Part shown: piece after piece, positions 15,485-17,180 of the stretch
Layout of the letters: every line of letters begins with the position of its first letter
Numbering within the stretch: position 1 is the first letter of the stretch
NCBI GenBank assembly: GCA_021513715.1
Contig: CP084167.1
Span: 2,624,001-2,688,000, forward strand
Length of the DNA stretch: 64,000 bases
From: Candidatus Heimdallarchaeum endolithica
GTDB taxonomy: Archaea > Asgardarchaeota > Heimdallarchaeia > Heimdallarchaeales > Heimdallarchaeaceae
Reading direction: 5' to 3'
Translations under genes and position numbers: made by a program
The notes under the pieces: model-generated
Seen by the model: only the letters and a program-made list of their open reading frames with translations
Told to the model about the DNA's origin: nothing
The model's database searches: none

Positions 15485-15724
15485 ATGATTTACTTTTTGC
15501 GAAGTTTGTCGAACTTAGTCTTTCAAGAAAAAAACAAAGAAAGAGAATTGTTAGTTTCTTGAGAACTTAATCCTAACATACAATGAAAGAAGAAGGATTA
15601 AGGCAGACGTCATACACGAATCGGGGGAATCATAAAGAAGAGAAGATGTTCTCTTCACTCCACGAGAGACAAAAAAGAAAGAATAACTAGCCCTAAAATA
15701 GAGAAATTATCTTTCTTTTTGTCT
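15485..15724 (-). ncRNA. Predicted omegaRNA scaffold of element 1 (guide would be the flank 15484->15465)
   Basis: Consecutive hairpins between the tnpB stop and the right end: 15707-15724/15667-15686, 15649-15656/15637-15644, 15594-15602/15566-15574 and 15555-15562/15523-15530. G-U pairs favour the - strand; the position is typical of TnpB omegaRNA. Confidence 0.7.
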
Positions 15725-17180
15725 ACTGGGACTGCAACCAATGGCTGAGTCCTCGGCAAACAGTATAATGCGTAAGACTAAACTTTTGACCAGTAAAGTA
15801 ATCAGTAATAGTTGTAACACGGGGACGAAAAAGATGACTAAGGAACTTACGGGCAATATTTCTAGCCCCTGTTAAATCAGAGTGGTAAGTATAGTTACAA
15901 AAGGGACAGTGTATTAATCCTCTGACGGGACGAGAAACTTCTTTTCCACAACGGGAACAATGAGAAGATGTTCCTCTTTCGTCTATTATAAGAATACGAT
16001 GAGGAGCAAAACCTCTTAATATCAATGCTCGACGGAGAAGAGAAAGAACTAAAGAAAAATTCCACTGGTGAAGTTTTCTGCGAAAATAACGAGTATTTTT
16101 ACCTTTCCCTTTTTCTTTTCCTTTTCTGACATTTTTGGGGTAACCTACGACGACGAAAAGGTCATACATTTGAGCATAGGTCCCTATCGTCCGCACAACG
16201 TCGTTTATAAATTGGTGAATATAGGACTGTTTAACGTTTCTATATCTCCGACGAAGATATCCAAGAAAACGATAAATTTGGTGTTTTTTACCCGACTGGT
16301 CATTTAAAGCCGCTTTCCTCTGAAGACGGGAAAACTTGAGTTTATATCTGTGATTGATTCTATTCCACTGTTTGGTATACCAGAATTTTATCTCTTTGCT
16401 TGTTAACTTCTTTTTGGGAGTTAGTAACACTCCTACAGCAGGAATGTTTATCCCTAGATCTATCCCCAGCACAGCTGGGGGAAGAGAAGAAGAATTATTA
16501 ACTGAATAAGAAAAAGAAGAAGGAGGAAGAACTTCTAATTGAAAATATACCCACCACTCACTTGTAGAACGTTTATATCTCAGTTCTAAACTTTTTATCT
16601 GTCCTTTCTTTAACTCTTTCTGGTGGAAAGTGCTCATCTCTAAAGGTAACCACAATCGTTGATGATACCTTGTTTTTCTTTTCCACGTGTCTAATGAGTC
16701 TCTTATTCCTACCCACCAACGAGAAATAGAGTTATTTTTCTCTTTTGGTAAATTAGTAAGAATAAACCTATTCTTATTGATTAGTTGTCTTCGGGGTCTC
16801 TTTTTTGGAGGACGAGTGGCTTCAGGTCTATATCCTTGCTCGTACAGTTGTACTGCTATATCTCTACACTCTTGAAACTCATCATGAGAACAATATGGAA
16901 ACATCTTTTTAAGGTCATGAGGAACAGTCTCTCTTCGCTCTTCTACTTTTTTTAGCCTTGATGTTGTCAATGTTAGTTCATCTAGTTTTCCTCTATGTAC
17001 TCTTATTTCTCCTTTCTTTGTTTTCATACACAGTCTTCTTCTGTTGTGATGTATAATTTTTACATATTTTTCTATTATCCTTGTGTCTCTCCCTGTTATT
17101 CTCCTTAATCTTTCCTTTTTTCTCCTCGTCAAAACTTCATTTTTTATTTTTACTTTCAAAGTTTTGACTATCTTCTCCAT
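15723..17180 (-). CDS. tnpB: TnpB-like RNA-guided RuvC nuclease with rearranged RuvC-II
   Basis: RuvC-I VLGIDLG (D241); canonical RuvC-II position is VVVGYP (G346); alternative E401 in IDERGTSSHC; zinc finger C408/C411/C425/C428; RuvC-III HSDLTGARNI (D435); very basic protein. Confidence 0.9.
   Translation of the reverse strand: MEKIVKTLKVKIKNEVLTRRKKERLRRITGRDTRIIEKYVKIIHHNRRRLCMKTKKGEIRVHRGKLDELTLTTSRLKKVEERRETVPHDLKKMFPYCSHDEFQECRDIAVQLYEQGYRPEATRPPKKRPRRQLINKNRFILTNLPKEKNNSISRWWVGIRDSLDTWKRKTRYHQRLWLPLEMSTFHQKELKKGQIKSLELRYKRSTSEWWVYFQLEVLPPSSFSYSVNNSSSLPPAVLGIDLGINIPAVGVLLTPKKKLTSKEIKFWYTKQWNRINHRYKLKFSRLQRKAALNDQSGKKHQIYRFLGYLRRRYRNVKQSYIHQFINDVVRTIGTYAQMYDLFVVVGYPKNVRKGKEKGKGKNTRYFRRKLHQWNFSLVLSLLRRALILRGFAPHRILIIDERGTSSHCSRCGKEVSRPVRGLIHCPFCNYTYHSDLTGARNIARKFLSHLFRPRVTTITDYFTGQKFSLTHYTVCRGLSHWLQSQ

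Follow-up and report, generated by a model that had tools for sequence, protein, structure and literature searches.

The window analyzed here, a stretch of 64,000 nucleotides from the genome of Candidatus Heimdallarchaeum endolithica, contains a compact mobile element whose sole gene is tnpB (Table 1). We consider it likely that the element is a non-autonomous, multi-copy, TnpB-only transposon of the Asgard aCas1-associated lineage, without an adjacent aCas1 gene, and that it persists through nuclease-driven retention. The natural copies of the element amount to an experiment: a single residue of this compact RNA-guided nuclease predicts the base beside 44 of 46 insertion sites. This rule is population-level evidence that TnpB shapes where the element survives. 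What merits follow-up is not the swap in the active site, which is by itself ordinary, but the residue-to-target rule and the missing mobilizing enzyme.

Table 1. Features of the tnpB element and of the interrupted host gene, in positions of the window
Feature	Position	Strand	Remarks
Whole element, including CATG at both junctions	15484..17324	-	1,841 bp, no transposase inside
Element body	15487-17321	-	under the AT-core reading
Left end	17294..17324	-	inverted repeat, two TTTTGCG-like units ~10 bp apart
Right end	15484..15514	-	inverted repeat
TATA-like box upstream of tnpB	17243..17252	-	conserved among close copies; putative function
tnpB	15723..17180	-	485 aa, rearranged RuvC-II, sole ORF of the element
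Codon of D100	16881..16883	-	part of SHDEFQ in the REC helix, which aligns with the TAM-reading helix of typical TnpBs
RuvC-I catalytic D241	16458..16460	-	in GIDLG (DLG, not DPG)
G346	16143..16145	-	in VVVGYP, canonical RuvC-II Glu position
Alternative catalytic E401	15978..15980	-	in IDERGTSSHC, ExxxxxxC before the zinc finger
C4 zinc finger	15897..15959	-	C408/C411/C425/C428
RuvC-III catalytic D435	15876..15878	-	in SDLTGA
Predicted omegaRNA scaffold	15485..15724	-	stacked hairpins
Predicted guide	15469..15484	-	host flank after the AT core; putative boundary
Predicted TAM, 5'-CCAT	17322..17325	-	target-derived (present in the empty allele)
Interrupted ABC exporter gene, 5' part	17324..17642	-	
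Interrupted ABC exporter gene, 3' part	14045..15484	-	

The inverted ends of the element match at 26 of 31 positions. Removing the element in silico restores the exact host gene with a frame of 586 codons, and the ABC exporter ortholog of Ca. Heimdallarchaeum aukensis (98% at the amino acid level, 589-aa frame) is intact and carries a single CATG. The junctions and this empty allele place the insertion at CAT(G/A) and show that the empty site is scarless. A 4-bp duplication of CATG was ruled out as the best reading by three observations: several copies read CATA at the right junction but still CATG at the left, the second TnpB family of the genome has TTG-AT at its right end, and the left junction of two H. 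aukensis copies is GATG or AATG. In a sister genus, the bases after CAT also vary at the junctions. Since AT is fixed at all junctions examined and the adjacent bases vary, a 2-nt AT core or a 2-bp AT duplication fits better than the 4-bp duplication, the two being indistinguishable from each other.

The closed H. endolithica genome (one contig of 3,326,783 bp), which was described together with that of its closest relative, H. aukensis (PMC8813620), holds 14 full-length copies, 12 from the family of the query, some of them frameshifted, and two from a subfamily 53% identical to it. Fragments and orphan right ends are also present, and all copies lie at unrelated sites. Pairwise dN/dS among the copies is 0.12-0.25, showing that tnpB is under purifying selection. 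Orphan right ends lie near genome positions 1817003, 2053078, 2097418, 2268068, 2350542, and 2711360, and several retain an omegaRNA-like region without tnpB. Chimeric copies (genome 3321850-3323307; locus L332), in which the left end of one subfamily is joined to the right end of another, show that copies have recombined with each other. A related genome, G002, contains at least five miniature elements of ~350 bp that lack an ORF and have ends of the same kind, which means that the ends need no ORF in cis to move. Six such miniatures (L336, L337, L339-L342) all follow a purine, and the TnpBs examined in G002 are of the Asn100 type.

The initial annotation described a TnpB with Gly for Glu at RuvC-II, an alternative Glu at position 401, and intact D241 and D435. 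This description is confirmed, and a set of 120 homologues shows the pattern to be near-invariant: D241 is present in 120/120, E401 in 115/115 of those aligned there, D435 in 114/114, and G346 in 116 of 117. Such conservation means that the active-site pattern reflects neither chance nor decay. In the translation, E401 lies 55 residues past G346 and 7 ahead of C408, and in the profile alignment G346 falls on the canonical Glu of typical TnpBs. In an AlphaFold model (pLDDT 83.5), G346 is part of strand 340-347, and E401 comes right after strand 396-400. Judged by strand order, this topology fits the β5 position of the alternative Glu described for rearranged TnpBs (PMC10691335). The protein matches PF07282, with the TnpB and Cas12f2 models below cut-off, and it also matches the D-phi-G ... 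ExxxxxxCxxC ... CxxC ... D pattern of rearranged prokaryotic TnpBs. With those proteins (TnpB2/RIIr/D-phi-G, TvTnpB; PMC10530073) it shares Gly at the Glu position, the alternative Glu six residues ahead of the zinc finger, and a hydrophobic residue after the RuvC-I Asp. It differs from them by ~100 aa of extra length, an unusual N-terminal half, the lack of a linked Y1 or serine TnpA, and its symmetric ends. The prediction of an active nuclease gains indirect support from the invariant catalytic residues, the low dN/dS, and the covariation of residue 100 with the target base described below, and, on this comparative evidence, the TnpB is probably an active RNA-guided DNA cutter.

The same annotation saw in this site a relevance to the origin of Fanzors. 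On that view, an archaeal relative or precursor would have passed to eukaryotes from an Asgard host. Several features invite that idea. Gly for Glu with an alternative Glu is the Fanzor arrangement, and the alternative Glu stands six residues before the zinc finger (E401-RGTSSH-C408) as in Fanzors and pro-Fanzors. The query sits in an inverted-repeat element as do some Fanzors, many Fanzor1 among them, and its host lineage is near eukaryotes. However, the RuvC-I motif is DLG in 115 of the 120 homologues, DIG in four, DMG in one, and DPG in none. Of the published patterns (Yoon et al., PMC10711439), the query matches the one combining D{not P}G with an alternative Glu and fails the DPG one. It further differs from Fanzor1, Fanzor2, and pro-Fanzors (PMC10711439, PMC10530073) in its position in the tree, its prokaryotic host, and the lack of an IS607 TnpA.

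The tree was built from 68 RuvC-region sequences (267 columns, LG+C20, dereplicated at 62%) and includes 17 DPG/alternative-Glu proteins from viral contigs, picked by motif, of which two are Fanzor1-like and the rest Fanzor2/pro-Fanzor-like. It is sparse, being drawn without named eukaryotic Fanzors, Cas12f, and rows with a spacing above 200 aa between RuvC-I and the zinc finger. The query falls among archaeal TnpBs: nearest to its Asgard clade are alternative-Glu TnpBs of halobacteria and Hadarchaeota (98/92), then canonical-Glu TnpBs (96/91), and several further starred branches separate the DPG rows from it. Forcing the Asgard clade and the DPG rows together costs 42.5 log-likelihood units and is rejected (p-AU 0.022), under sparse sampling and for a hypothesis that came from the initial annotation, with the group members listed after the tree had been seen. 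Deep TnpB trees are hard and the sampling is thin, which leaves the Fanzor precursor some room. Nevertheless, sequence and fold searches return Cas12f and TnpB first, with Fanzor2 ranking 21st, and Fanzors have been traced to cyanobacterial IS607 pro-Fanzors (PMC10711439). In addition, ends like those of the query element carry a canonical-Glu TnpB in the same genome, which uncouples the Fanzor-like architecture from the Fanzor-like site. We therefore regard an archaeal Fanzor precursor as very improbable. A better fit is convergence, which the annotation had allowed as an alternative, or a shared state of much greater age. Within TnpB, rearranged sites are known from two major clades as well as eight large branches (PMC10691335), and the archaeal TvTnpB, which has the G-for-E change, has already been shown to cut (PMC10530073). 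TnpBs with G for E are common among prokaryotes, and the site, which other archaeal TnpBs share, is no mark of Fanzor ancestry. Its presence in an Asgard archaeon is not to be read as a link to eukaryotes, and the picture of Fanzor origins is unchanged.

The clade itself is distinct, as had been proposed: the query TnpB belongs to 22 Asgard rows with a support of 100/99. Heimdallarchaeia and Thorarchaeia account for almost all of the closest homologues with a named source, and relatives named Heimdallarchaeum, Heimdallarchaeota, and Thorarchaeota bear out the Asgard host. In at least 15 Thorarchaeia loci, tnpB lies head-to-head with an ORF of 1,500-1,900 aa. The N-terminal domain of this partner folds as a Cas1 catalytic domain in a VIA-align search of 48,161 chains, where Cas1 chains take the first 12 places (Z 9.1-13.0, rmsd ~4, 151-192 residues aligned) and the match that follows them has a Z of 6.2. 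Foldseek matches of the partner were weak, and Pfam, PDB-sequence, Atlas, and hhalign searches gave no identification. TnpBs associated with aCas1 in Asgard archaea were reportedly noted by Makarova and colleagues in 2020. The Thorarchaeia relatives carry the GTTCACTCA motif, which is the motif given for aCas1-associated TnpBs of the groups Cas1H-Asgard-1 and -2 (Altae-Tran et al. 2023, PMC10691335). Given the Cas1-fold partner and this motif, the protein clade is one that has already been catalogued computationally as Cas1H-Asgard (PMC10691335).

The element of the window shares with Cas1H-Asgard loci its clade and the repeats around the locus. In contrast to them, it has no aCas1 in cis and stands alone as a compact element that is bounded by inverted ends, targets CATG, and has given rise to miniature derivatives. 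A downstream GTTCACTCA after a hypervariable stretch is absent from the Heimdallarchaeum copies, and the guide appears to be flank-derived instead. An aCas1 profile found no match in the H. endolithica genome or in 31 genomes of the family, and matches in three genomes of the same order. Thorarchaeia loci (L028-L051, L085, L086) have a GAGTGAAC hairpin ~55 bp ahead of tnpB whose sequence is complementary to the GTTCACTCA motif downstream. At several of these loci, GTTCACTCA occupies the loop of a hairpin that covaries; the stretch published as hypervariable may be one arm of a stem and not a guide.

Which enzyme mobilizes the element was approached through the known transposases. Profile, maximum-sensitivity HMM, and motif scans of the H. 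endolithica genome for an aCas1 helper returned CRISPR Cas1 genes only. No IS607 TnpA was found in cis in ~60 loci, and none above cut-off in either closed Heimdallarchaeum genome. Two stand-alone, single-copy small serine recombinases (L128:1213-2046, L129:1201-1950; genome 317 kb and 406 kb) are candidate helpers, and weak matches like them recur in most genomes of the family. The genome has one tyrosine integrase. Its four DDE IS families were considered as mobilizers and rejected, their ends being unrelated to those of the element. The single Y1 transposase gene (genome 923912-925479, L130) adjoins a different TnpB. This Y1-linked TnpB, which is unrelated to the query clade, also has the Gly/alternative-Glu arrangement, so rearranged sites are not rare in this genome.

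Compared with known families, the element departs from IS200/IS605, which has asymmetric hairpin ends and a Y1 TnpA, by its inverted ends. It resembles IS607 (bioRxiv 2023.11.20.567912) in the fixed 2-nt core at both junctions, the scarless empty site, the short repeated motifs near the ends, and the TAM overlapping the core. Unlike IS607, its core is AT, not GG, it has the true inverted ends that IS607 is said to lack, and the IS607 elements of the family itself have other ends. The result is a successful element in two closed genomes without a recognizable transposase. Its defined ends, target, and empty allele make the mobilization of TnpB elements of the Asgard aCas1 lineage testable.

Downstream of tnpB, the 240 bases past the stop codon fold far better than shuffled sequences (z = -4.39). 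Seven base pairs in this region show changes on both sides among copies, and GTCT (15605-15608) pairs with AGAC near 15520; an Rfam search of the region gave no match. A transcript through the right end would give an omegaRNA with its guide from the right flank. The predicted guide sequence matches only the empty site.

The strongest pattern in the data concerns residue 100. At the left junction, the base just 5' of CAT is target DNA, as it is present in the empty allele. In a first set of distinct sites, C is found at 14/14 sites of Asp100 copies and A or G at 20/22 sites of Asn100 copies (Fisher p = 4e-9, with sites treated as independent draws), against a genome background of 21% C and 44% purine. 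The rule also holds at further sites, added once it had been formulated, with C at all six Asp100 sites and a purine at all four Asn100 sites, two of the latter having an altered base in CAT itself. Overall, C accompanies Asp100 at 20/20 sites and a purine accompanies Asn100 at 24/26, so that the rule fits 44/46. Both exceptions are of the Asn100 type, namely L383 with C and a fragment at genome 1.26 Mb with T. Five of the six later Asp100 sites are different CCATG sites that carry one identical protein, P0031. On the gene tree, residue 100 has switched between Asp and Asn about five times. Starred branches force at least three of these switches, and the base follows the residue. A sign test on the three phylogenetically independent Asp/Asn pairs on starred branches, a number that cannot reach significance, gives p = 0.25. 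This residue-100/target-base rule is new here.

In the profile alignment, residues 99-103 fall on the SQxLQ helix of typical TnpBs, and we take this helix to match the numbering of ISDra2 TnpB one-to-one. In ISDra2 TnpB, K76, F77, and Q80 read TAM positions -3, -4, and -2, with F77 contacting -4 and Q80 reading -2A (PMC10097598). By analogy, with a (C/R)CAT TAM, Q103 would read -2A and residue 100 would read the base at -4. Contacts of Asp with cytosine and of Asn with purines are common protein-DNA pairings. The covariation of residue 100 implies a putative CCAT TAM and nuclease-driven retention. It also offers a candidate TAM switch, D100 for CCAT and N100 for RCAT.

In the mechanism that we propose, an enzyme acting in trans would excise the element and insert it through the 2-bp AT core. 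Transcription through the right end would yield an omegaRNA with the right flank as its guide. In the next step, which has strong sequence support, the nuclease (D241/E401/D435) would cut the empty allele beside a TAM that its REC helix dictates (CCAT for Asp100, RCAT for Asn100), and repair from an occupied copy would then restore or spread the element. An insertion would persist only if its flank suited the resident TnpB, leaving the residue-to-base rule. Retention through the cutting of empty sites is established for IS605 and IS607 TnpBs (bioRxiv 2023.03.14.532601, bioRxiv 2023.11.20.567912). For retention alone to filter almost perfectly, excision would have to be frequent and the RNA would have to be used in cis.

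Alternatively, the mobilizing enzymes or the ends might set the flanking base, with residue 100 simply following it and the nuclease perhaps binding without cutting. No helper was found in the closed genome, the independent switches are few, and end sequences vary between subfamilies, all of which would suit this explanation. However, the base tracks residue 100 and not the type of left end: L384, L391, and L332 have Asp, other left ends, and C. Residue 100 also lies in the known TAM-reading helix, and the three catalytic acids are invariant. In addition, copies with Asp100 and copies with Asn100 occur together in one genome; the base therefore cannot be set by a helper common to both and must be set by TnpB in cis. 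We consider a base dictated by helper or ends improbable.

TnpB could also act earlier and pick the insertion site itself, its TAM-reading helix binding the TAM and recruiting or licensing a host or other recombinase at the AT core. The near-exactness of the rule and the uniform CCATG at the five P0031 sites would follow naturally, as would the different choices made by Asp and Asn copies that share a genome and presumably a helper. Moreover, no close relative has a transposase in cis, and none was identified in trans. If true, this would be a transposase-free element whose nuclease doubles as target selector. Against it, the 350-bp miniatures move without TnpB in cis, although their flanking base fits the mostly Asn TnpBs of that genome. 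In the literature consulted, we found no precedent for TnpB-guided integration, and retention gives the same pattern through known biochemistry. Target choice by TnpB thus seems unlikely, and nuclease-driven retention is the reading that we prefer.

In the sister genus, tnpB is often preceded by a gene for a HerA/VirB4-like ATPase (DUF87) and by a long structured leader, and it has the same right end, TAACTCAT (L016, L020, L025, L061, L089, L312, L319, L320, L322, L324). A left end was sought at these loci and not found, and ten cargo genes near the longer elements include no integrase; the loci are possibly part of a larger integrative element. The second TnpB family of H. endolithica, with a canonical Glu and similar AT-bounded inverted ends, occupies genome positions 2688161-2689495, 2833334-2834677, and 3216795-3218129, the first copy lying just past the end of the window. 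All three copies are at T-CATG, and a TCAT TAM is possible.
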